Shown here piece after piece: positions 1 through 43,248 of a DNA stretch of 43,248 nucleotides; position 1 is the stretch's first letter; each line of letters opens with the position of its first letter. Source of the stretch: a virus. The DNA lies in IMG/VR virus record IMGVR_UViG_3300045988_178743; one strand, given 5' to 3'. The position numbers and the translations under genes are program-made. A model generated the notes under the pieces. It worked only from the letters and a program-made list of their open reading frames with translations. It was not told where the DNA came from and did not search any database.

Positions 1-45
1 CTGATTGTCGGCCTTAGAAGCGCCGAACTTACCGGTGATATTCGG
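1..45 (-). other. 5' fragment of silent fibre cassette V4 (PNITGKFGASKADNQ...), cut by the window edge
   Basis: Bases 1..55 are identical to 42722..42776, where the cassette continues to its stop at 42554. Confidence 0.85.
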
Positions 46-55
46 CGCCGAATAT
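38..55. repeat. Crossover site copy: perfect 18-bp palindrome ATATTCGGCGCCGAATAT between two head-to-head cassette starts
   Basis: Self-complementary by inspection. The same sequence occurs at 42759..42776 and 43194..43211. Confidence 0.9.
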
Positions 56-278
56 AACGGGTCAACTCAATAAATCACCTACGCCTTGGAGCGGCTTACT
101 TTATGAACAAAATGGGGCACTCAAGCCCGTTAACGTAGGTGATACAGCTTATTCCGGTCATACCAACGGTTCAAATTACCGTTTGGAATTTGATGCCTCT
201 TGTTCTAACAAAACCTACGGCAACAGTACAACCGTTCAGCCTCCATCGATTGCGCTCTTGCCGTGTATTAAGTTCTAA
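48..278 (+). other. Silent tail-fibre C-terminal cassette V6 (76 codons, PNITGQLNKSPTPW...TVQPPSIALLPCIKF-stop), no start codon
   Basis: My own translation from CCG at 48. It shares the PNITG start and the VQPP..LLPCIK end with the expressed fibre. It lies convergent with, and overlaps by 11 nt, the stop of gene 268..774. Confidence 0.85.
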
Positions 279-774
279 TGCAGGGGAGCAGGGAGATAGA
301 GGGCGGCTGAACCGTTGCCGAAGATCCGTAGATTGATGAAGTTCTGGATGCATAAAAATTGACAGCATTAGTGCTTGAAGCGCCCCCACCCGGAACATTT
401 ACATTCTGACTGACCATTGAAAACGCTCCGGATGATTCAGTAACCCACGGGGTTCCATTATGAGATCCGCTGATATTCGGTAAGCCCGCGCTTTTAAACG
501 TTCCGGCTGACCCAATTGAGGTTGTGCCCTCGACAAAACGATTCGCTAAATTTGGCAAGTTAAAAGTTGTACTTCCATCACCACTGCCATGTTTTGTACC
601 AATAACTGCGAAAAGCGCTGCGTATGTCGATCGACTCACAGCTGCACCGTTGCAGAGAAGCCAGCCATCAGGAACTGAATAGAAGTGTCCAAGCATTCCT
701 GTTGGCATGCTCAACGGCTTTAGCTTAGGGAGCAGATCATTCAATGCCTGAGAAATTTGAGTAAGAGTTGCCAT
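268..774 (-). CDS. Tail fibre distal subunit with a phage tail-collar-type domain; residues 99-168 are cassette V5 in the expression slot
   Basis: 168 aa. The motif DGWLLCNGAAVSRSTYAALFAVIGTKHGSGDGSTTFNLPNL is typical of the tail collar / MdpB-like domain. It lies last in the baseplate-fibre operon. The C-terminal 70 codons follow the CCGAATATCA junction. Confidence 0.85.
   Translation of the reverse strand: MATLTQISQALNDLLPKLKPLSMPTGMLGHFYSVPDGWLLCNGAAVSRSTYAALFAVIGTKHGSGDGSTTFNLPNLANRFVEGTTSIGSAGTFKSAGLPNISGSHNGTPWVTESSGAFSMVSQNVNVPGGGASSTNAVNFYASRTSSIYGSSATVQPPSISLLPCIRT
471..480 (-). repeat. Half crossover site inside the expressed fibre gene (sense CCGAATATCA = Pro-Asn-Ile-Ser)
   Basis: This is the same 10-mer that opens every silent cassette. 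The 480-bp terminal repeat ends exactly here. Confidence 0.8.
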
Positions 775-5572: not shown

Positions 5573-6855
5573 TCACTCAAAATCCTTAACGGAGACGCTG
5601 GACAGAAGCCTTCATGACGAACCCCATTCCGGAGTGCTATTTCCGAATCGCGAGTTGCATCATCGTGATAATCGTAGGCAAGCACCACAGCAGGAACAAC
5701 ATCCGTTGGCGTCACAGTGATTAAGCGCTGCTGCAAATCTGCACGTGATGTAAGTACCTCAAAGACTGCGACGCGGGCATCTTCGATCTTTTTGTACATC
5801 TCATCGTTGGTCTCGAGCAGAAGCTCCGTATCGAGCGCCTCTGTGAGCACCGTACGAGTTTCAATGAGTTCATCGTAGCTCCTGACATGAACTGTCATTT
5901 CGGAAAGATCGTCCCGAGTCGTGAGCGTCGTGCCTGGCGCCGAAGAGTCTTTGTCAGAGCCCACGAGAGCGCTCACGCCGACCATCTGCGCGATAAGAAG
6001 CTGACGCGTCAGCGTTTCTACCGCCGCACGATTCTTCATCACAGTCTTCTGCACATCCGAGAGTGTCGTCCCTTCCTCAACGACCTTTCTGTAAGCTTTA
6101 GTGCCAGACGAAAGTTTGTCGTGCCCAACCAAATTTTCGAGCTGCTTCGCCACACTGCGCCACGCAGAAACAGTTGTTGCCCACCGCGAAAGTCCTAGCG
6201 CACCGGCGAGCTTCGTCGCGAAGATCTTCGGATCAGTTGAAAGCAGTGACATGGCCTTCGACGCAGTCTCAGCTACTCCCTCAGCAAAATCGAAGATTTT
6301 GGAGAGTTCCGAGTTACTAATGATCCCTAGGCAGTCGAGAATGTCGCCCTGGAGCGCAGAGTCGATGTACTCGTTGATCGTCTTAAGATCGATCGACGTC
6401 ACAAACCGATCAATAGCCGACTCTTCGACAGCATCTGCAACATCGAATGCTTCACTCTCAGCGTCCACCGAAATCGTCGGAAATTCGAGAATGCCGGCCT
6501 CTGTCGCGGTGATCACCACCGACGCAACTCCGAGTGCCGCATCAAATTTGAGCTCTGAGATAGAGGTAATCGTCACCTCCATCTCGCCCAGCCAAGGGTG
6601 TATGAGCGTGCCAGACCCAGGAGCCTCCAGCTCTGCCATTAAGGATTGAGCCTGAGCGATATAGTCATCACCAATAACGAACGCAGTGAGAGTGATCTGT
6701 CGCGTCGCTCGCCCTAAATCTTCAACAAATGGCTGATCCTTTTGAGGATATTCGTGGACCACCGTACGGCGCCCAATTTTCAAACCTGACGCAGTCACCT
6801 CAAAGGGTATACCTCTAAAGCTTGCCGGCTGAAGCTGATCAGAGAACTTACTCAT
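5569..6855 (-). CDS. DNA circulation protein (Mu gp43-like)
   Basis: 428 aa. The N-terminus ASFRGIPFEV...GRRTVVHEYPQKDQPFVEDLGR is the signature of the Mu DNA-circulation N-terminal domain. Confidence 0.8.
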   Translation of the reverse strand: MSKFSDQLQPASFRGIPFEVTASGLKIGRRTVVHEYPQKDQPFVEDLGRATRQITLTAFVIGDDYIAQAQSLMAELEAPGSGTLIHPWLGEMEVTITSISELKFDAALGVASVVITATEAGILEFPTISVDAESEAFDVADAVEESAIDRFVTSIDLKTINEYIDSALQGDILDCLGIISNSELSKIFDFAEGVAETASKAMSLLSTDPKIFATKLAGALGLSRWATTVSAWRSVAKQLENLVGHDKLSSGTKAYRKVVEEGTTLSDVQKTVMKNRAAVETLTRQLLIAQMVGVSALVGSDKDSSAPGTTLTTRDDLSEMTVHVRSYDELIETRTVLTEALDTELLLETNDEMYKKIEDARVAVFEVLTSRADLQQRLITVTPTDVVPAVVLAYDYHDDATRDSEIALRNGVRHEGFCPASPLRILSE

Positions 6856-17885: not shown

Positions 17886-18320
17886 CTAGAACGCTTTCGG
17901 CGGGACTTTTGACCCGCCCCTCCCCCTCGAATTCCCGAAGCCGCCATCCTCTCGTGCAGTCTTCTTCGAGTGACACCGATGACAGAGCGGCTGAAGATTG
18001 CTCTCATCCCACATCAAGTCTTGATCACCTCGATGCGGTTGGATGTGGTCAACGTCGGTGGCAGGTGTAACCCTGCCGAGCCTGGCGCAGTCTACGCAGA
18101 GCGGATGCTCGCGGAGAAAGCGAGCCCGAAGCCGCTGCCACCGGGCGCCATAGCCTCTTGCCGAGGCGGAACCCTTGAGCGCTTCTCGGCGCCGATCCCT
18201 CTGGCGGTGTTCGGTTTGCTGTCGGCGTGCCGCATCTTCTTTATGCTTCTCGCAAAAGTCCTCACCACGCGGCACCGGATGCCGACAACCAGGATGTTTG
18301 CATAGAGTAAAGAGAGGCAT
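17886..18320 (-). CDS. HNH endonuclease (packaging-associated)
   Basis: The motifs CVDCARLGR...DHIQPH...NLQPLCHRCHSKKT are present, upstream of terS as in HK97-like cos phages. The start is trimmed to MPLFTLCKHPGC. Confidence 0.85.
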   Translation of the reverse strand: MPLFTLCKHPGCRHPVPRGEDFCEKHKEDAARRQQTEHRQRDRRREALKGSASARGYGARWQRLRARFLREHPLCVDCARLGRVTPATDVDHIQPHRGDQDLMWDESNLQPLCHRCHSKKTAREDGGFGNSRGRGGSKVPPKAF

Positions 18321-18322
18321 GT

Positions 18323-18679
18323 ATGGACCAACTCGAAGACCTAGTAAAGGATTTCCAAACACCCAAAGTCGCCAAAGTGAATCTCAAAGCTCTTCGAGAT
18401 CGAGATGAAGCCAGCGGCAGATTAGTGGTTGATGCTTTCACACCGCGATTCGTGGACTTGGAGCAGCGTTTAGATCGTTTGGAACGCAATTCCCGAAAAA
18501 CCTTCCGCCGGACGGTCCTTGCCGGGATCATCGGCGGATTCGGTGCGGCAGCACTTTGGGCGGCTGCTTCCTATTTGCTCAAGAGGTATGTCATCACACC
18601 TGACACAACGCCAGCTACAACACCAACGACCACTGCACATAAAAGCCACAACGCTTCAAATGACATGGCAACCCCCTAG
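18323..18679 (+). CDS. Hypothetical membrane-anchored protein, encoded antisense to the late operon
   Basis: 118 aa with a coiled-coil-like N-terminus, one TM segment (VLAGIIGGFGAAALWAAASYLL) and a Thr/Pro-rich tail. The opposite-strand ORF here looks like noise. Confidence 0.5.
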   Translation: MDQLEDLVKDFQTPKVAKVNLKALRDRDEASGRLVVDAFTPRFVDLEQRLDRLERNSRKTFRRTVLAGIIGGFGAAALWAAASYLLKRYVITPDTTPATTPTTTAHKSHNASNDMATP

Positions 18680-24428: not shown

Positions 24429-24902
24429 ATGACGAATGAAAATACGACGTTTCGCCCGCTGGATAGCCTCCAGGTGATGGCGTACATCGTTGACATGTGT
24501 CGGAAACAACATATCGAAGTCAACGTGACGAAACTTCAAAAATTGCTCTACTGCTGCTACGGCGTCGCCTTGGCTCAACTCGGCATCAGGCTCACAAAAG
24601 AATCGCCTCAAGCATGGCAGTATGGCCCCGTATTCCCGAAAACTCTTGAGTACTTTCGCAAGCACCCCATTGAGAGCTTAACTGACTCCTCTGTGTTAGA
24701 GTCGACGGCTAGTGATGAGCTCAAAAAGTTGCTTATCGGGACATTGACCTACTTTGGACAATTCTCGGCATCACAGCTTTCTACCTGGTCGCACCAAATC
24801 GGCTCGCCTTGGTATCGCTCTTCAAATGGTGGTGCCAATCTTCGTGAAGAGATTGATGACACCTCCATCAAGTGCTATTTCAGGAACGAGGTTTTGGCGT
24901 GA
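24429..24902 (+). CDS. Panacea/DUF4065 (PanA, SocA/GepA-like) putative antitoxin
   Basis: 157 aa. VTKLQKLLYCCYGVALAQLG...AWQYGPVFPKTLEYF matches the DUF4065 core. An SD (AGGGAGG) lies upstream. Confidence 0.75.
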   Translation: MTNENTTFRPLDSLQVMAYIVDMCRKQHIEVNVTKLQKLLYCCYGVALAQLGIRLTKESPQAWQYGPVFPKTLEYFRKHPIESLTDSSVLESTASDELKKLLIGTLTYFGQFSASQLSTWSHQIGSPWYRSSNGGANLREEIDDTSIKCYFRNEVLA

Positions 24903-26992: not shown

Positions 26993-28886
26993 CCCAAACT
27001 CCCGGGGATGCACCTAGTCCCGGAACACTCGCGGTGGCAAGGGCAAACCTAACAGGGTAAAGAGATCTCGGATTTTCTTCGGGATCTCTTTTGTTTTCCA
27101 AGCGTTGCGATCAGTTGGTTTATTGGCCTTCAGATAACGCAGCTGCATAAAGGCCTTCGTCAAAGAATTGCTGGGCAAACGGTTCGTTGCCGTTTCGTTG
27201 CGCCGACATGCCATACGCATCATCAGGCGCAGTGACTGGGCCAATACCTGGACAAACAGCTTGCCCATGTAGGTGCTTGAGGTCGCGTAGAGACGATCTC
27301 CAGCAGTTTGATTCTTAAACTGCTGGAAGCTCTGTTCGACAATGTTGCGGGCCCGATAAATGCTCAGAGCGATAAAAGGATCCTGGACGACGTTCGTGCG
27401 GATCACAAAGTTGCCCATGTAGCGGCACGCATCTGCCACTGCCGCGGCATTGCGCATCCAGTGCTGAGGCTCCTTTTTGACCAGGTACCGATGCATTTCT
27501 CTGAGCTGCTCCGAATCCACTTTTTTCCCTTGGTTGAGACGGTCAATCGTTTCATCGAGATTCTTTAGAAAGACTCGTTTCTGCTCGGCCCGCAGACACC
27601 CGTCCTGATACAAATGCAGTGTGTTGTGAATGTGCTGGCGTCCGGCTGCACCGTCTTCCTGCCACATTTCTGTCGTGGTGTACGCCGCCACTTCTAAGCG
27701 GCCATCGGTAAAAGCAGGATCGTCAAGGGAAACGCGGTGCTGATCAAAGAGCCGCCGAACAGAGTCTTCAGCTCGAGTTACACCTTGGACGAATTTCAGT
27801 TCCAGGTTGATGAGTTTTTGCATGTTCATCAAGCTGTGATAACCGCGATCCGTCACCAGCACGGTGTTGGAGAGATCAAATTGATGGTCGATCATGCGCT
27901 GCACAATAGCCAGATAGAGCTGCTTATCGTTAGTCGAGCCTTCGCTTTCGTAGGCATAGCAGACATCTCCCGTCTCGTAATCCACCCCTAAAGACAGATT
28001 CACTTGCCGCAGATGAGGATCCTGTCGGGCATGGCCATAGGCAGCCGAGGCGATGGTCTCTGAGTAAGTGCTGATGCTGGTGGAATCCAAAGCCAAAAAC
28101 TGCGGGATATCGGCAGCTGAGACCTTTTGTCGTGCTTTTAGCAGACGGTCGTGTCGACGTTTGAAGTACCGGTCCATCAGGCTCTGATCAACCACCGCGA
28201 GCTGCTCACTAATGCGCTGGCTCGATAAAGGCTGGGCTTGCGGCAGCCAGACCAAAGCCAGCCAATCCGCGTAATTCATCATGCCGCTGTCTTCCCCGCA
28301 GAGGCGATAGATGGCAAAGCGAAGCAGTTCCGTACCCGTATCTTCGCCAAAAGTCTCCTGTAAGTCCTCGAGCAAGCCATGGTCCACAGCGAATTGCCAG
28401 GCTGCCCAAGTCAACCCCAGTTCGACATCTTCCCCGCGCCAAGACGGCTGCGGTTCGTTGTCCGTATCCGGCTGCTCGAACGGCTCTTGTTCAATGAGCT
28501 GATTATTGTCGTAAAGCCAAAACTTGCCGGCGTATTCCGGGTTATTCGTGAGGAATTTGCGCCCGAGATGGACCTGCCCAGTTTGCGGATCCAAACGCCC
28601 GACATGGCATCGTTTCTCAATGCGTGACTGTTTCTTTTCCGGATCCCAGCGATTGCGATAGCCGTAGACATAGGTACGCCCATCGGCATCCGTGTACGTA
28701 GAGAAAGACCAAGGTTTTGGCGAAGATGGCATGATGTTGTCTATATTAAATAACTATAGACTATGATAAAGATAAAGCAAAGGCTTGTCAAGTTTTTATT
28801 AAATAAAAACAATGGATTAGGAAGAATAAATAGGCCGACTTTGCGTCAGATCAGGACCTCCCGGAGCTAGTCTCCGGGAGTTTGGG
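26993..28886 (-). mobile_element. Intact IS4-superfamily (IS1634-like) insertion sequence, 1894 bp
   Basis: Terminal inverted repeats are CCCAAACTCCCGG (26993..27005) and CCGGGAGTTTGGG (28874..28886), extending imperfectly inward. A 6-bp direct target duplication TTCTTA lies at 26987..26992 and 28887..28892. Confidence 0.85.
27014..28732 (-). CDS. DDE transposase, IS4 superfamily
   Basis: 572 aa with LALDSTS, VTDRGYHS and YRARNIVEQSFQQFK, the last matching the Y-2-R-3-E-6-K signature. Confidence 0.85.
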   Translation of the reverse strand: MPSSPKPWSFSTYTDADGRTYVYGYRNRWDPEKKQSRIEKRCHVGRLDPQTGQVHLGRKFLTNNPEYAGKFWLYDNNQLIEQEPFEQPDTDNEPQPSWRGEDVELGLTWAAWQFAVDHGLLEDLQETFGEDTGTELLRFAIYRLCGEDSGMMNYADWLALVWLPQAQPLSSQRISEQLAVVDQSLMDRYFKRRHDRLLKARQKVSAADIPQFLALDSTSISTYSETIASAAYGHARQDPHLRQVNLSLGVDYETGDVCYAYESEGSTNDKQLYLAIVQRMIDHQFDLSNTVLVTDRGYHSLMNMQKLINLELKFVQGVTRAEDSVRRLFDQHRVSLDDPAFTDGRLEVAAYTTTEMWQEDGAAGRQHIHNTLHLYQDGCLRAEQKRVFLKNLDETIDRLNQGKKVDSEQLREMHRYLVKKEPQHWMRNAAAVADACRYMGNFVIRTNVVQDPFIALSIYRARNIVEQSFQQFKNQTAGDRLYATSSTYMGKLFVQVLAQSLRLMMRMACRRNETATNRLPSNSLTKAFMQLRYLKANKPTDRNAWKTKEIPKKIRDLFTLLGLPLPPRVFRD

Positions 28887-29115: not shown

Positions 29116-29391
29116 ATGAACGTCAAAGTCATCACCACCGCGCTGCAACACTTAGTTGGCGGCGCCGCTTTGAATGTTGCTCTGGGCGCAAGACTCGAAT
29201 TAGCGACCCAAGAAGCAATCGCAGCCAGCGGACGTGAGGCAATTATCGTTTACCAATGGTACAGCCGCTGCGTCAAAGATCCTTCACTTGAGGATTTTGA
29301 ATCGTGGCTAAGTAAAAAAATCAGCAAGAACAAGGAATTCAGCCAACTCGTTCAGGATTGGCACAATTTCTACAAGTCCCGCGGGGCGTAA
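29116..29391 (+). CDS. Hypothetical protein
   Basis: 91-aa ORF with an AGGAG SD upstream. Confidence 0.5.
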   Translation: MNVKVITTALQHLVGGAALNVALGARLELATQEAIAASGREAIIVYQWYSRCVKDPSLEDFESWLSKKISKNKEFSQLVQDWHNFYKSRGA

Positions 29392-32212: not shown

Positions 32213-33071
32213 TCAACTTCTTCAGGTCTTCTGCTTCAATGATCTCATCTGAAGAGGTTTCAGCAAGAAGGTCTTGTGCGTTCTTCTTGGAAACAATAGA
32301 GTGACCGATCTGCTTTTCTGCATCGCGTCTCGCTCGTCCGGCAACGCCACCACTCTTCTGAGCGACCATCTTGTTTTCCTCAAATGTTTGCGGATTTTGC
32401 GACTTCGTCATTTCGGTAGCCGTTGCTTCAGCAAACATCGTCAAAGCGGTCTCAAGGGTCGTCATGTTATCTCGTAGGTTGCCGCCCTTCATTCCCTTCA
32501 GTTTCTTATGATCCTTGACACTGATACCAAAAGCTCCTGAATGAATGATGTTTGTCAGTGTCGCGTATTGAAGGCCTTCTTGCACGCCGTGAGTCTTCCA
32601 TTGATCAGTTAACTCGTTGCGAACCTGAATACCCTGAATTCGCTGATTGATCCAGGCAGGGCTATACCCTTTCGCCTGATACGTCATTTTTGCGCGGACA
32701 ATAGCCTGCTCAGGGTCGACAGTTTCTTCTATTCGTTCCTTCCCAACAGAAGCTAACCATTGCTTAAAAGGCTCCGCCTTAGGTGACGGGATAGACTGAA
32801 CGATTCGCAGTATTTGTTCAATTGACGCTGCATCCGTTAATCTTCCTTTCCCGTCTGGCGCAGTCATTTTCAACCGTACGATATTTTCGTACGTTTGATT
32901 GGCCCCCTCTTTTTTCAGCTTCCGCTTTAGATCGCTCCAATACCGTTTAGGTTCAGAGCTGCCGGTAAGTACGCTGACAACGTCAACCACGCTGAAAAAC
33001 CTCTCTTCCTTCTGATCATCCCAAGCAGATCGCACTTGATGATCTTCAAACAATTGAATCTTCCCTTTCAT
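32208..33071 (-). CDS. Bro-N/DinD-like (DNA-damage-inducible protein D-like) protein
   Basis: The start MKGKIQLFEDHQVRSAWDDQKEERFFSVVDVV overlaps the integrase stop (ATGA). SPKAEPFKQWLASVG is the Bro-N-type motif. Confidence 0.6.
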   Translation of the reverse strand: MKGKIQLFEDHQVRSAWDDQKEERFFSVVDVVSVLTGSSEPKRYWSDLKRKLKKEGANQTYENIVRLKMTAPDGKGRLTDAASIEQILRIVQSIPSPKAEPFKQWLASVGKERIEETVDPEQAIVRAKMTYQAKGYSPAWINQRIQGIQVRNELTDQWKTHGVQEGLQYATLTNIIHSGAFGISVKDHKKLKGMKGGNLRDNMTTLETALTMFAEATATEMTKSQNPQTFEENKMVAQKSGGVAGRARRDAEKQIGHSIVSKKNAQDLLAETSSDEIIEAEDLKKLK

Positions 33072-34414
33072 TTCATCTCCTTCCAACAAAATTCTCCCCA
33101 AGCTTCGTAGACATCTCTCATGTCGCCCAGCGCCTGCTCACGGTCGTAAGCGCACTGATAGCTTTCATTACGATGATCAAGGCAGCTCTCTCGCAGATCA
33201 CGCGGGAAAGCCTTGTGCCCATAGCCCTTCGCATCCTTCGCCCAGGTATTGAAAGTCGCACGAGCAAGGCCGTGCAGCGTCACGATTCTAGGCTGCCCGT
33301 CCCGCGTTTTTTCGTCCAGATCAACCCAGCCGACGCCGTCAATCTTCTTCTGCTTGACGTGCATGCGCTTCAGCAGCGCTCGCACAGAATCACGGCTGAA
33401 AGCGGAGAGACGGCCCTTGTTGATGTTCGGAAAGATGAAGCCCTTCTCATCGTCCGGAAACCTCGGCGCACTGTCGAGAAGCGCTGTCGCCTGCGGACTT
33501 AGAGGCGTCTTTCGGTCAAAAGGAATCTTGTCGCTCTTCATCTTCATGCGACCACGAGGAATGACATGCAGCCAATGGCCGTCATCGTCCTGCTGAATTT
33601 CGTCCCAAGTTGCTTCACGTGCCGTGGTGTTCCGCGCTGATGTAAGAATGGCAAAAGCAAGGCAACGTGCAGTCTGGCTTTGCGGCACCAGCTTCATAAG
33701 CTCGGCAAAAAAAGCTGGCATTCTCTTCGGATGAAGAGCTGGTTCGTGACCACCATCCGGTCGATCAAGCGCGAGAAGGTCACCGAGCTTTCCATTTTTC
33801 ACCTGACACGGATTGAGCATGGCCGGGATCATCTCCTGTCTCATAGCCCAGTCATATGCATTGCGCATATCGGACAAGATGCGTTCTGGCGTGTCTATCA
33901 TCGTTCGCCACTTCTCTCCGATTTCCTCATGTACTCGTTCGGCAGTCAAATCCTTCGCCGACATGGAGAGCAGTGATGCAGATAAGTGATTTCGGCAGTA
34001 ACCATCCCAGACAAGCTCTTTTGGCTTTAAGGCATTCTTCCACCGTCCACGTTCTTCATTGAACCGGATCCAGCTGTAGACAATGTCTTTAACTGAAGGT
34101 TCTCGCGGAGACTCTAGCAGCCTTGTAAGCTGCTCTGCTTTTTGCTTCTTGACTTCTGAAGGATCTATTCCATCATCCAGCATCCGCCGCCAATCCGCAG
34201 CCATCATAAAAGCTTCACTTAAGCTCAGCTGAGGGTAAGAGCCAAGATTAAAGCACCGTTTAGTGCGACGATCCCGCAGAACGAAATATTTGACAATCGA
34301 ACCGTCACTCCTGCTGCGTGGACGGACATACAGACCAGGAACTACCCCACAAGCCGTTTCGGAAGTAACGCTTCGGAGTTTTTTATCGGTCATTTTGACT
34401 GCGACTCTAGGCAT
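33068..34414 (-). CDS. int: Tyrosine integrase (P4/CP4-57-like)
   Basis: 448 aa. The N-terminal GLYVRPRSRSDGSIVKYFVLR is an arm-binding type motif. Catalytic candidates are R (TSARNTTAREA), HxxR (HGLARAT) and H...Y (LDHRNESYQCAYDRE). It is adjacent to the att-like region. Confidence 0.85.
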   Translation of the reverse strand: MPRVAVKMTDKKLRSVTSETACGVVPGLYVRPRSRSDGSIVKYFVLRDRRTKRCFNLGSYPQLSLSEAFMMAADWRRMLDDGIDPSEVKKQKAEQLTRLLESPREPSVKDIVYSWIRFNEERGRWKNALKPKELVWDGYCRNHLSASLLSMSAKDLTAERVHEEIGEKWRTMIDTPERILSDMRNAYDWAMRQEMIPAMLNPCQVKNGKLGDLLALDRPDGGHEPALHPKRMPAFFAELMKLVPQSQTARCLAFAILTSARNTTAREATWDEIQQDDDGHWLHVIPRGRMKMKSDKIPFDRKTPLSPQATALLDSAPRFPDDEKGFIFPNINKGRLSAFSRDSVRALLKRMHVKQKKIDGVGWVDLDEKTRDGQPRIVTLHGLARATFNTWAKDAKGYGHKAFPRDLRESCLDHRNESYQCAYDREQALGDMRDVYEAWGEFCWKEMK

Positions 34415-34426
34415 AAGCTAATCGTT

Positions 34427-34497
34427 GCTCCCAAAAAATCCGAGTGATATTTCCATTTTATGCTCCCACGTGTTTTTATGGGAGCTTAAATGGGAGC
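34427..34497. repeat. Int-proximal arm-type repeats (TGGGAGC, four copies)
   Basis: GCTCCCA at 34427 and 34462 (inverted) and TGGGAGC at 34479 and 34491 (direct). Confidence 0.6.
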
Positions 34498-34602
34498 ATT
34501 AGCCGCGAGCTAGAGACACTTCGATGCGGACTTTAATACGCCAATAAGCAGCAACTTAATATCGCGTCATCCTTAGAGAATCAAGGAATGCGAGACGATG
34601 AC

Positions 34603-34633
34603 GCAACAAAAAAGGTCATCTTACGATGACCTT
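34603..34633 (-). terminator. Hairpin terminator immediately 3' of the tRNA-like core
   Basis: AAGGTCATC-TTAC-GATGACCTT. In minus sense it is followed by TTTTTTG, and in plus sense by CTTTTG. Confidence 0.65.
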
Positions 34634-34645
34634 CTTTTGTTGATC

Positions 34646-34665
34646 TGGTCGGGGCGGCGGGATTC
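34646..34665 (-). other. att core resembling the 3' end of a tRNA gene (partial, not a functional tRNA)
   Basis: The minus sense reads GAAT-CCCGC-CGCCCCG-A-CCA, which is T-loop end, T-stem 3' strand, acceptor 3' strand, discriminator and CCA. No matching 5' half lies upstream. Confidence 0.6.
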
Positions 34666-34710
34666 ATACATTCCTGCTACAGAGGCAGATTAAAAGACCA
34701 TATCAAATAA

Positions 34711-40677: not shown

Positions 40678-41847
40678 ATGCGCTCCTCCTTATCTTCAAA
40701 AAAAATTGCGGCCTTAAAGCCGCGTGAAAAACGATTCGCTGTGGCTGACGGCCACGGTTTGTGTTTGCGTATCTATCCTTCTGGCGTTAAAAGTTGGTAC
40801 CTGCGCATCTCATATTCAGGCCGCGTGACAGACATCGCACTCGGTCGATGGCCAGAAATCAGCTTGATGCAAGCTCGACAGGAAGCTCGCAGGCGACGAA
40901 AAACACTTGGTCTTGAACCACCGAGAGGCTATGTCTTAAATGACGCCTTCAAACTTTGGTGTGGTCTAAAGAAAGGCCGCATCGTGAGTTACGCCGACGA
41001 ACGTCGACGATTGGAGCGCTATCTCATCAAACCCCTCGGAAGACGCCAGATTGACGAAATCTCTGCACCACTCGTCATTACAACCGTTAAGCACATCGAG
41101 GCAGAGGGGCATCAAGCAACACTGAAGCGCGTTCTCATGCGAACACGTGAAATACTTGACCTCGCCGTGTGTGCGGGCTACATCCATCACAATCCTTGCG
41201 AGCGTTTGAGCCGTGTCTTTGCAGCTCCCGTTGTTACGCCCATGCCGGCACCGGAGTGGCATGAACTACCAAACATCATGCAGGTGATGAAATCCGCTCC
41301 CGTACGTATGCGAATTCTTTTCCTTTTCTCGACCTGTTCAATGCTGCGTCCTGGGGAAAACGCAAAGCTCAAGCGTTCATGGATTGATGGCGACATCCTC
41401 ACGATCCCCGCCAAAGAGATGAAAATGGGGCGTATGCACCGTGTTCCGCTCACTGTCTTCATGAAGCAACTCCTCGAAGCTGAGCTACGCCTTTCTCCCC
41501 ATCCCAGAGGAGATGTCATCTTCGCTGCCAAACAAGCGGGCAAACATATCAGCACTCAAACGCTTGCTAAGTATCTGCATTCAACGCAACTCTCCGGGAA
41601 GCTCGTGGCCCACGGTCTACGTTCGATGGCACGATCGTGGATGGCAGATCAAGAGATTTCTTTTGAAGTCGCTGAAGCATGCCTTTCACATGTTGCTGGC
41701 TCTTCTGTATCGCGGGCCTACCAAAGAAGCGACTTTCTCACAGCACGCGTTCTAGTTATGACGCGCTGGAGTACCTTCATCAAGCGCTGTGCCCGAGAAG
41801 CCGATATGCTCGATGGAATCCTTGAACCCGAGCGGGACAAGATCTGA
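40678..41847 (+). CDS. Tyrosine recombinase, P4-integrase-like architecture; candidate fibre-cassette invertase
   Basis: 389 aa. The N-terminal IAALKPREKRFAVADGHGLCLRIYPSGVKSWYLR is DUF4102-like. Catalytic candidates are R (MLRPGE), HxxR (AHGLRS), H (LSH) and Y (SRAYQRSD). It is immediately upstream of the cassette array. Confidence 0.85.
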   Translation: MRSSLSSKKIAALKPREKRFAVADGHGLCLRIYPSGVKSWYLRISYSGRVTDIALGRWPEISLMQARQEARRRRKTLGLEPPRGYVLNDAFKLWCGLKKGRIVSYADERRRLERYLIKPLGRRQIDEISAPLVITTVKHIEAEGHQATLKRVLMRTREILDLAVCAGYIHHNPCERLSRVFAAPVVTPMPAPEWHELPNIMQVMKSAPVRMRILFLFSTCSMLRPGENAKLKRSWIDGDILTIPAKEMKMGRMHRVPLTVFMKQLLEAELRLSPHPRGDVIFAAKQAGKHISTQTLAKYLHSTQLSGKLVAHGLRSMARSWMADQEISFEVAEACLSHVAGSSVSRAYQRSDFLTARVLVMTRWSTFIKRCAREADMLDGILEPERDKI

Positions 41848-41872: not shown

Positions 41873-41909
41873 CTAGCCCTGCGTTTAGAAGTACAGACCG
41901 CAGGGCTAG
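41873..41909 (+). terminator. Hairpin after the recombinase gene
   Basis: CTAGCCCTGCG-N15-CGCAGGGCTAG (11-bp stem). The T-tract is weak (AAACGTGCTTTT). Confidence 0.45.
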
Positions 41910-41926
41910 AAACGTGCTTTTGATGA

Positions 41927-42142
41927 CCGAATATCACTGGTCAATTTCAGGGTGGTGACCACCTTGAGACACTGGCTTCCGGCGCCTTTGGATACGCAAA
42001 AGAATCCACATCTACCCTTGGTGGAGGCGCTTATAAGTTAGATATCGGAGATTTCAAGGCTTCTCGAAGCTCTTCCGTCTACGGGGGCTATTCTGGCGTT
42101 CAACCACCAAGCATTGCCATGCTCCCATGCATCAAAATTTGA
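41927..42142 (+). other. Silent fibre cassette V1 (71 codons, PNITGQFQGGDHLE...GVQPPSIAMLPCIKI-stop)
   Basis: My own translation. In-frame TGA TGA precedes it directly and there is no start codon. The site at its 5' end is only a half-site. Confidence 0.85.
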
Positions 42143-42347
42143 TACAAGGAAGCAATGCCATTGCCGGAGGCTGAACAGTTGAAGCTGAGCCGTAAATCGA
42201 AGATGATTTAGACGCATTTATGTACAAGTTGGTACCGTTGTCTGCTCCGCCCCCAGGACCTCTTGTGGTTTCGCTTTTGTACAAAGCTCCGGCTTCAGCA
42301 AGGCCACCCCATGCGTAAGACATATTGATGTTGCCGGTTATATTCGG
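42132..42347 (-). other. Silent fibre cassette V2 (71 codons, PNITGNINMSYAWGG...TVQPPAMALLPCIKF-stop)
   Basis: It is the C-terminal part of ORF-track ORF 42132..42464. The stop overlaps the V1 stop by 11 nt. Confidence 0.85.
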
Positions 42348-42356
42348 TCCGAATAT
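42340..42356. repeat. Crossover site s1: 17-bp palindrome ATATTCGG-T-CCGAATAT between V2 and V3
   Basis: Seen by direct inspection. Flanking arms are imperfectly symmetric out to about 35 bp. Confidence 0.85.
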
Positions 42357-42564
42357 CACAGGTAACGTCAATGTCGCTAAAGGGTGGGGCAGCATCGCAG
42401 ATGCCGGCGCTTTATATAGAGAGGGGACTACACAAGCACCGGGGGGCGGTGCCGCAAACGGCACTTATGTGTACTTAGTGGCGTCTAGATCTTCCTCAGT
42501 TTTCGGCTCTTCTTCTACTGTTCAACCGCCATCCGTTGCGTTGTTGCCATGCATCAAAATTTAA
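42349..42564 (+). other. Silent fibre cassette V3 (71 codons, PNITGNVNVAKGWGS...TVQPPSVALLPCIKI-stop)
   Basis: It is the C-terminal part of ORF-track ORF 42325..42564. Confidence 0.85.
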
Positions 42565-42766
42565 TGCAAGGTAGAAGCGCCATCGCCGGAGGCTGAACAC
42601 CAGAAGAGCGGCCGAACGTCGAATCGGACGACGAAGCGTCAAAAGAGAATTGAACCGCAGAGGTTTGACTACCATTTGCCCCATTCAAGTAACCGGCATT
42701 CGAAAACGCACCTGAAATGGTCTGATTGTCGGCCTTAGAAGCGCCGAACTTACCGGTGATATTCGG
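42554..42766 (-). other. Silent fibre cassette V4 (70 codons, PNITGKFGASKADNQTISGAF...GVQPPAMALLPCIKF-stop)
   Basis: My own codon-by-codon translation. An in-frame TGA lies 3 codons upstream of PNITG. The stop overlaps the V3 stop by 11 nt. Confidence 0.85.
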
Positions 42767-42776
42767 CGCCGAATAT
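42759..42776. repeat. Crossover site s2: perfect 18-bp palindrome ATATTCGGCGCCGAATAT (22 bp if the TG..CA flanks are included)
   Basis: Seen by direct inspection. It is identical to 38..55. Confidence 0.9.
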
Positions 42777-42981
42777 CAGCGGATCTCATAATGGAACCCC
42801 GTGGGTTACTGAATCATCCGGAGCGTTTTCAATGGTCAGTCAGAATGTAAATGTTCCGGGTGGGGGCGCTTCAAGCACTAATGCTGTCAATTTTTATGCA
42901 TCCAGAACTTCATCAATCTACGGATCTTCGGCAACGGTTCAGCCGCCCTCTATCTCCCTGCTCCCCTGCATTAGAACTTAA
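42769..42981 (+). other. Inverted duplicate of cassette V5, the tip currently in the expressed gene
   Basis: It is the exact reverse complement of 268..480 and here is joined to the V4 flank instead of the constant part of the gene. Confidence 0.9.
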
Positions 42982-43201
42982 TACACGGCAAGAGCGCAAT
43001 CGATGGAGGCTGAACGGTTGTACTGTTGCCGTAGGTTTTGTTAGAACAAGAGGCATCAAATTCCAAACGGTAATTTGAACCGTTGGTATGACCGGAATAA
43101 GCTGTATCACCTACGTTAACGGGCTTGAGTGCCCCATTTTGTTCATAAAGTAAGCCGCTCCAAGGCGTAGGTGATTTATTGAGTTGACCCGTTATATTCG
43201 G
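42971..43201 (-). other. Inverted duplicate of cassette V6
   Basis: It is the exact reverse complement of 48..278. Confidence 0.9.
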
Positions 43202-43211
43202 CGCCGAATAT
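43194..43211. repeat. Crossover site copy (mirror of 38..55)
   Basis: The same 18-bp palindrome. Confidence 0.9.
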
Positions 43212-43248
43212 CACCGGTAAGTTCGGCGCTTCTAAGGCCGACAATCAG

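Follow-up and report, generated by a model that had tools for sequence, protein, structure and literature searches.

In the R64 shufflon, the tyrosine recombinase Rci swaps the C-terminal segments of one adhesin-type gene, which encodes the pilus tip PilV, by multiple inversion. The recombinase gene adjoins the array, and several inverted sites flank the alternative 3' ends of the gene. The sfx sites of R64 have a core of 7 bp between two arms of 12 bp, the left one variable and the right one conserved, and a proposal reported in the same source holds that this asymmetry limits Rci to inversions (PMC11852207). The closest phage precedent for the locus described here is the Rin shufflon of Bifidobacterium prophages (PMC6109161). 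There, a phage tyrosine recombinase is located beside an array of receptor-binding C-termini, a separate integrase is present elsewhere in the prophage, and a short asymmetric repeat of 11 bp is found before each cassette and inside the expressed gene. The evidence came from inversions between related prophages (Mavrich et al. 2018, PMC6109161) and is of the same type as ours. The Gin, Cin, Pin and Min systems (Mu, P1, e14 and p15B) also produce alternative tail-fibre C-termini by inversion at the boundary between a constant and a variable part, and recently described phage "shufflons" such as FRphi use Gin (PMC13418256).

We compared these systems with a locus in a stretch of viral DNA of 43,248 nt, called the window below, the features of which are collected in Table 1. 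Upstream of the expressed fibre gene the window contains Mu-type baseplate genes and genes for sheath, HK97-type capsid, portal, terminase and an S24 repressor, and the element is therefore a temperate myophage. Its host is Sutterella, as S. wadsworthensis DSM 14016 has a collinear prophage and a recombinase with 99% identity. About 35 related arrays were compared; the close relatives number 23, originate from viral and metagenome contigs and contain arrays of 2, 4 or 6 cassettes. Taken together, these data make it very probable that the locus is a shufflon with one asymmetric site per cassette, most likely run by the adjacent 389-aa recombinase. A tail-fibre shufflon with a tyrosine recombinase is a known trick, run here, most probably, by an integrase-type enzyme, and the locus is most likely not a new kind of system. 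Three further ORFs of the phage genome were recorded: an ORF with a DDE_Tnp_1 transposase domain (27014-28732, minus strand), probably an insertion sequence, and, at 24429-24902 (plus strand) and 17886-18362 (minus strand), taken in the order in which they are listed, an early-region ORF with a SocA/Panacea antitoxin-type domain and an HNH endonuclease adjoining the small terminase gene.

Table 1. Features of the window, with positions counted from its first letter.
Feature	Position	Strand	Remarks
V4 (partial, 1-45, minus) abutting V6 (48 onward, plus), CG centre	38..55	.	
Cassette V6, family F16, silent in this orientation	48..278	+	
Expressed tail-fibre gene	268..774	-	last 70 residues are one cassette; Phage Tail Collar domain
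Cassette V5, family F04, fused to fibre gene, currently expressed	268..480	-	
Solitary site within expressed gene	467..480, core 473-480	-	left flank encodes Ala-Gly-Leu, free wobble positions
Constant N-terminal part of tail-fibre gene	481..774	-	Pfam Collar E = 8e-22; PDB long tail fibre 8KEC E = 6e-9
Second tyrosine recombinase, 448 aa, likely lysogeny integrase	33068..34414	-	Arm-DNA-bind_3; R..HxxR..Y motifs in translation
Candidate shufflon recombinase, 389 aa, CP4/P4-type tyrosine integrase	40678..41847	+	Pfam Arm-DNA-bind_3, Phage_int_M, Phage_integrase
Hairpin (41873-41883 / 41899-41909) and T-rich stretch 3' of recombinase gene	41873..41926	+	read from sequence; non-conserved left flank of first site
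Solitary site, recombinase end of array	41927..41940, core 41927-41934	+	
Cassette V1, family F14, silent	41927..42142	+	
Cassette V2, family F10, silent	42132..42347	-	tail to tail with V1, 11-nt overlap at stop codons
V2/V3 starts back to back	42340..42356	.	1-nt centre, T at 42348
Cassette V3, family F00, silent	42349..42564	+	
Cassette V4, family F12, silent	42554..42766	-	first 45 nt repeated at window 1-45
V4 abutting V5, CG centre	42759..42776	.	alternative orientation of V5-V6 segment
Reverse-complement copy of 1-480	42769..43248	.	V5 + 42769-42981, V6 - 42971-43201, partial V4 + 43204-43248

The 8-mer CCGAATAT is present ten times on both strands of the window, against 0.88 expected copies, and 0 of 100 shuffles reached this number. 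All ten copies sit at a cassette start and open a P-N-I-(T/S)-G reading frame, after which each frame adds 65–72 residues and closes in a conserved ..VQPPS.ALLPCIK block. The precise form of the site is CCGAATAT-(C/A)-A-(C/G)-N-GGN, so that a Thr or Ser codon precedes the Gly codon. An earlier, sequence-only reading of this region had described two internal palindromes and two half-sites, and all strings quoted there were recovered: ATATTCGG-T-CCGAATAT at 42340..42356, ATATTCGG-CG-CCGAATAT at 42759..42776, TTGATGA followed by CCGAATATCA at 41927, and GGCTTA followed by CCGAATATCA in the expressed gene (core 473..480, minus strand). As claimed there, both "palindromes" are pairs of cassette starts set back to back, with the centres T and CG. 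The same reading had counted seven cassette starts. The right-hand array does show seven (41927, 42347, 42349, 42766, 42769, 43201 and 43204), but since 42769..43248 is the reverse complement of 1..480 the last three are copies of V5, V6 and V4.

Outside the core, the flanks of the solitary sites vary. The flank of the first site, tgcttttgatga, is kept in the closest relatives and differs in homologues of 62–78% identity, and the gene site is preceded by gcgggctta, gctgggtta, gctggatta or gctggggta among relatives. The position of the solitary site at the recombinase end hosts 11 different cassette families across relatives. Tail-to-tail cassette pairs overlap by 11 nt (42132-42142, 42554-42564 and 42971-42981, the last equal to 268-278), and there the final codons and stop of either cassette, read on the opposite strand, become those of the other (..CIKI* / ..CIKF*). 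The plus-strand cassettes V1, V3 and V6, the latter in its orientation at the start of the window, are mutually direct repeats.

The ends of the window provide a view of the rearrangement itself. Positions 1..480 are the exact reverse complement of 42769..43248, and positions 1..55 are identical in direct orientation to 42722..42776; both identities stop exactly at an 8-mer edge. This terminal inverted duplication is an assembly fold-back through the invertible segment and not a set of extra cassettes. In relatives the array leads directly into the fibre gene, and another contig (L001) contains an equivalent fold-back at the recombinase end. It follows from the fold-back ends that the real molecule is a circle of ~42.7 kb, with the order recombinase, V1(+) V2(-) / V3(+) V4(-) / V6(+) V5(-), constant fibre part, and that it carries six distinct cassettes instead of seven. 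The third CG-centred pair (38..55, equal to 43194..43211) is the same physical site with the V5–V6 segment in the other orientation. Thus, the V4/V6 and the V4/V5 junctions are both present in the sequenced population, and the exchange is confined to CCGAATAT: the flanks of the two switched sites differ at position -1 (CG vs TA) and at position 9 (A vs C). The 480-nt inverted ends could wrongly be taken for true inverted terminal repeats or for an indication that the genome is complete, and shufflon arrays of this type break or fold assemblies.

The evidence for shuffling stems throughout from the comparison of assemblies and from such fold-backs. The cassettes of the 23 close relatives belong to about 19 families, and the same families recur with other orders, orientations and expressed cassettes. 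The array of L014, for instance, reads int / F09 F15 / F12 F07 / F10 F16 / gene and that of L026 reads int / F16 F00 / F09 F15 / F07 F12 / gene. The centres stay in place while the flanking cassettes change: TCTGC is found between F15 and F12, F07 and F15 or F00 and F12, depending on the locus, and the CG centre likewise has different cassettes beside it in different loci. This is the pattern that inversions with a crossover between centre and cassette body would give. Array sizes of 2, 4, 6 and 10 cassettes across the whole set would fit occasional, rare deletions between direct sites. Two deletions between direct sites could turn the six-cassette array of L028 into the two-cassette F05–F06 arrays, and any bias towards inversion and suppression of deletion may accordingly not be absolute.

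Some candidates from this comparison were discarded. Starts encoding PNIRG (CCGAATATCAGGGGTA; L010, L026 and L044) had been considered as hybrid junctions proving a crossover to the right of position 11, but one C-to-G substitution would account for them just as well. The pattern scan of viral contigs also picked up palindromes that arose by chance and have nothing to do with fibres (L012, L013, L020, L022 and L024), and these were dropped. The array region had no match at the DNA level in the phage collection, and the distant array L025 (CCGAATATTAC) had no other representative in the viral contigs. In L029 (3965) a cassette of family F02/F03 is frameshifted near its 3' end and reads past the usual stop; either the silent cassette has decayed or low coverage led to an error in the assembly.

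Compared with R64, the layout of the locus is similar. The sequence-only reading had likened the sites to those of R64, with a core, one conserved arm and one variable arm, and the comparison is apt, because R64 (record NC_005014) has back-to-back pairs as well as solitary sites. In both systems the cassettes are arranged tail to tail, and the sfx pairs (28715-28760 and 29216-29261 of the R64 record) stand back to back with their cores facing an 8-nt centre; the alternative 3' ends of the R64 gene correspond to the six cassettes by the fibre gene. However, the 389-aa recombinase has no detectable similarity to Rci (BLASTP E = 0.94). Rci consists of a Phage_integrase Pfam domain with a C-terminal extension, whereas the 389-aa enzyme has Arm-DNA-bind_3 and Phage_int_M in addition. 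The conserved part of the site comprises 19 bp in R64 and 8 + ~5 bp here, and the target is a phage tail fibre in place of a pilus tip. A search for sfx (GTGCCAA core plus TCCGGTNNNTGG arm) with the query GTGCCAATCCGGT yielded only three scattered matches with two mismatches, none of them at a cassette start. The likeness to R64 holds, in our view, as an analogy by convergence and not as homology.

The differences from the other described systems are of a similar kind. Rin is XerD-like and armless, whereas the 389-aa enzyme has an arm domain, and the rix repeat TTCCCTAACCC gave 0 matches at up to 1 mismatch. Rin acts on the receptor-binding protein of a Gram-positive siphophage and its cassettes are mostly tandem, in contrast to the tail-collar fibre of a Sutterella myophage and mostly tail-to-tail pairs here. 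The Gin, Cin, Pin and Min systems depend on a serine recombinase and on 26-bp dyad sites with a 2-bp crossover, together with Fis and an enhancer; neither such a recombinase, among 39 ORFs scanned, nor the other elements were found here. The CP4-57/P4-type integrases share the domain architecture of the 389-aa enzyme (arm, core-binding and catalytic domain with R-K-H-R-H-Y), but the 389-aa gene is attached to an inversion array inside a prophage and apparently not to an att site, although its product might still have a part in integration. Full-text searches of the literature revealed no description of this Sutterella system.

To put these elements into one scheme, a multiple-inversion system would change the C-terminal ~70 residues of the tail-collar tail fibre in a temperate Sutterella myophage. 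One asymmetric recombination site would open each cassette. Its 8-bp core would have to match between partner sites, with the strand exchange, and hence the cleavage positions, presumably within this core (CCGAATAT here, CCGAACAT or CCCAACAT elsewhere). The cassette-side arm is only partly conserved (N-A-(C/G)-N-G-G), largely because it encodes Ile-Thr/Ser-Gly, and the outer arm is without conserved sequence. As the core is not its own reverse complement, oppositely oriented sites would invert the intervening DNA; recombination of the gene site with an oppositely oriented cassette start would then place a new tip on the constant part. The palindromes would arise because cassettes are stored tail to tail in pairs, so that two sites happen to abut. 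The predicted enzyme is the 389-aa tyrosine recombinase of CP4/P4 type encoded next to the array, the product of a second integrase-like gene that would be dedicated to inversion.

The properties of this protein are in line with such a function. Its N-terminus matches the arm domain of a CP4-like integrase (3JTZ, E = 1.3e-15), and the candidate catalytic residues R224, K249, H312-x-x-R315, H338 and Y348 are invariant in 8 homologues with 61–100% identity. The best NCBIfam match is PRK09692 with 164 bits, which is below the 434-bit cut-off of this family, and the 661 homologues found at E <= 1e-20 are annotated only as generic integrases. In every homologue inspected (62–100% identity) the order fibre chaperone (minus), recombinase (plus), array, Collar fibre (minus) is kept; in L040 the recombinase is located 3 kb away from the Collar array. 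With this gene neighbourhood as the basis, the 389-aa recombinase is most likely the enzyme of the inversion.

Because the assignment is made from the neighbourhood, a real inversion could also be the work of a different recombinase, for example the 448-aa integrase or, in trans, an enzyme of the host, with the 389-aa gene being otherwise employed. The full integrase architecture of the 389-aa protein, including the arm-binding domain, speaks for this possibility, as do known trans-acting invertases such as Mpi, cited in PMC6109161. On the other hand, the 389-aa gene stays beside the array even where the rest of the tail module differs, and in S. wadsworthensis its homologue is internal to the prophage. 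Furthermore, in an array-less homologue the gene is reduced to a remnant of 39 residues, as if the shufflon module had been lost, and other prophages of the group likewise carry a separate integrase near their end. We regard the action of another enzyme as unlikely and retain the 389-aa protein as the candidate. The remnant is found in the array-less phage L041 (4501-4617) between the fibre and the chaperone gene. In L041 and also in L008 and L009 we observed two complete tandem tail-collar fibre genes and no array.

The 448-aa recombinase is divergent and unrelated to the 389-aa enzyme, and only its arm domain reaches Pfam significance. The homology to the integrated S. wadsworthensis prophage starts at 34604, ~190 nt from the start of the 448-aa gene, and this boundary makes it likely that the gene encodes the lysogeny integrase. 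Judged by the same homology boundary, attP is probably located at about 34415-34700, just upstream of the gene. A string resembling a tRNA 3' end lies at about 34648-34670; analysis of the matching prophage border region of L028 with ARAGORN identified no tRNA gene.

The sequence-only reading had proposed the asymmetric half-site as the functional unit. The opposite view, that the palindromes are true symmetric sites with both arms bound specifically and that the solitary sites are weak or special half-sites, draws on the almost perfect palindromes, 17–30 nt long, at the internal sites of the window and of many close relatives. The spacing between abutting starts argues against it: the centres measure 1, 2 or 5 nt in close relatives and 6, 7, 11, 13 or 373 nt in homologous systems, and a range of 1–373 nt leaves no fixed spacer. 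Moreover, L040 and L047 contain tandem direct cassettes without any abutting pair, two-cassette arrays have two solitary sites only, and cassettes swap partners across one and the same centre. The alternative junction of the window used the solitary gene site, and in L044 two solitary sites recombined. Symmetric sites are therefore very improbable, and the variable centres, the arrays without a palindrome and the L044 inversion identify the single asymmetric site as the working unit, as had been proposed.

A more detailed view of the L044 inversion revealed that the solitary site at the recombinase end had recombined with a pseudo-site, CCGAATATGGGCGG, that lies 75 nt further upstream in the fibre gene, in the codons for the collar motif LPNMGGRF. 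A segment identical in 75/75 nt to the intact gene of L010 now lies inverted at the recombinase end, and the expressed gene of L044 reads ..TFGL/PNITGQIG.., so that both reciprocal junctions are located at the 8-mer. The partners have no palindromic mate, and the pseudo-site has only the 8-mer and GG (positions 13–14) in common with the other site. This aberrant natural inversion (6089-6163 and 7451 of L044) deletes 25 residues from the expressed fibre; it should be reversible because both junctions keep the core. Junctions outside the conserved 10-mer, or a need for both palindrome arms, had been named in advance as observations that would count against the half-site. In the assemblies, the junctions of the window and of L044 fall at the 8-mer, solitary sites recombine and arrays without palindromes exist.

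The linker PNITG had also been proposed to be constrained both as DNA and as protein. The double constraint stands, but the unit at the DNA level consists of 8 nt (positions 1–8) and not of the 10-mer. In the position table, positions 1–8 are invariant, positions 10, 11, 13 and 14 are conserved and the upstream bases carry little information, with the qualification that the search pattern had partly pre-selected positions 1–14. When close relatives were scanned in six frames for the peptide motif alone, without recourse to the DNA pattern, 98 PNI(T/S)G starts came up; 96 of them are CCGAATAT and the remaining two, the sites of array L032, are CCGAACAT. This independently confirms the asymmetry of the position table. 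In L047 positions 10–11 differ (TCGGGG, TACCGG, CTCCGG), which shows that the 10-mer is not a unit, and coding alone can explain the conservation of positions 10–11 and of the cassette-side arm.

The wobble bases of the core behave differently. Positions 3 and 6 are uniform within every array inspected and differ between arrays (CCGAATAT, CCGAACAT, CCCAACAT), whereas most arrays show internal variation at positions 9, 12 and 15, likewise wobble positions. Two controls support a constraint on the core at the DNA level: the residues of the VQPP..LLPCIK block use all synonymous codons (first Pro: CCG 22, CCT 19, CCC 6, CCA 5), and a related phage without an array encodes PNITG as CCTAATATC. The conserved 3' ends of the cassettes, examined as potential arm-type sites, use their codons freely and show no constraint at the DNA level. 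A core that is uniform within arrays and differs between them is what would be expected of the strand-exchange (overlap) region of a tyrosine recombinase, in which the partners must match, and heteroduplex could spread a core change within an array.

These findings also bear on the idea that no dedicated site-specific system exists and that a conserved PNITG motif is simply accompanied by general or micro-homology recombination. PNI(T/Y/K)G is indeed conserved in array-less fibres. However, the wobble positions 3 and 6 are frozen in arrays, whereas equally conserved codons elsewhere drift; the junctions are precise and reciprocal, and a recombinase gene is always attached. An identity of 8–14 bp is very short for RecA-type exchange. 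We give general recombination very little credence and continue with the site-specific shufflon. A serine invertase of the Gin/Cin/Min type, cutting the 2-bp centre of a 26-bp dyad-symmetric site as in the classical phage tail-fibre inversion systems (PMC6109161, PMC13418256), would suit those centres that are the dinucleotide CG but is extremely unlikely, as a Pfam scan of 39 ORFs (80 aa or longer) detected no Resolvase-type protein, some centres are 1, 5 or more nt long, the junctions are inside the 8-mer and not at the centre, and the "centre" TA of the gene site against CG elsewhere is incompatible with a 2-bp staggered exchange.

A survey of related phages for covariation between site and recombinase, suggested by the sequence-only reading, showed no strict tracking. 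Recombinases with 87 and 74% identity are combined with the core CCGAATAT, one with 69% with CCCAACAT, and those with 78, 67, 64, 63 and 62% with CCGAACAT; the enzyme of L032 is 99% identical and its core is CCGAACAT. Consequently, the core says little about protein recognition. Position 9 (C/A) is the sole difference over 213 and 219 nt in two independent pairs of otherwise identical cassettes (L010:4530 vs L011:1236 and L011:1239 vs L016:997), which may mean that exchange now and then extends past the 8-mer by one base, or that this base mutates unusually often. Scans of the array for promoters and terminators gave results at chance level.

We lean slightly towards a wider reading, in which a clade of arm-domain CP4/P4-type integrases has turned into dedicated shufflon invertases in Sutterella prophages, with minimal sites whose only strict DNA requirement is a partner-matched 8-bp core in the codons of PNI(T/S)G. 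If true, tyrosine-recombinase shufflons would have arisen independently three times (Rci, Rin and this clade), here with an integrase-type arm domain serving inversion and perhaps setting its direction. Tail-fibre shufflons set phage host range, and the Sutterella shufflon appears widely in human-gut Sutterella prophages. The locus also indicates that a conserved protein motif can house a very small site, and that comparative data tell bases that must match from free ones. An integrase-type enzyme performing multiple inversion on conserved sites of ~14 bp could be an orthogonal tool beside Rci, for instance in barcoding or shuffling circuits.

A second inverted pair was observed in L040 (5748-7921), where two ORFs of ~400 aa lie start to start beside the recombinase with 62% identity. 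They share a 15-nt inverted repeat, CTGAAAGTCAC(T/G)GGC, which encodes LKVTG and has a 7-nt centre, and additionally an 18-nt perfect inverted repeat, the copies of which are 2138 nt apart; contig L039 ends at this point. The pair may represent a second invertible fibre locus with a related site.
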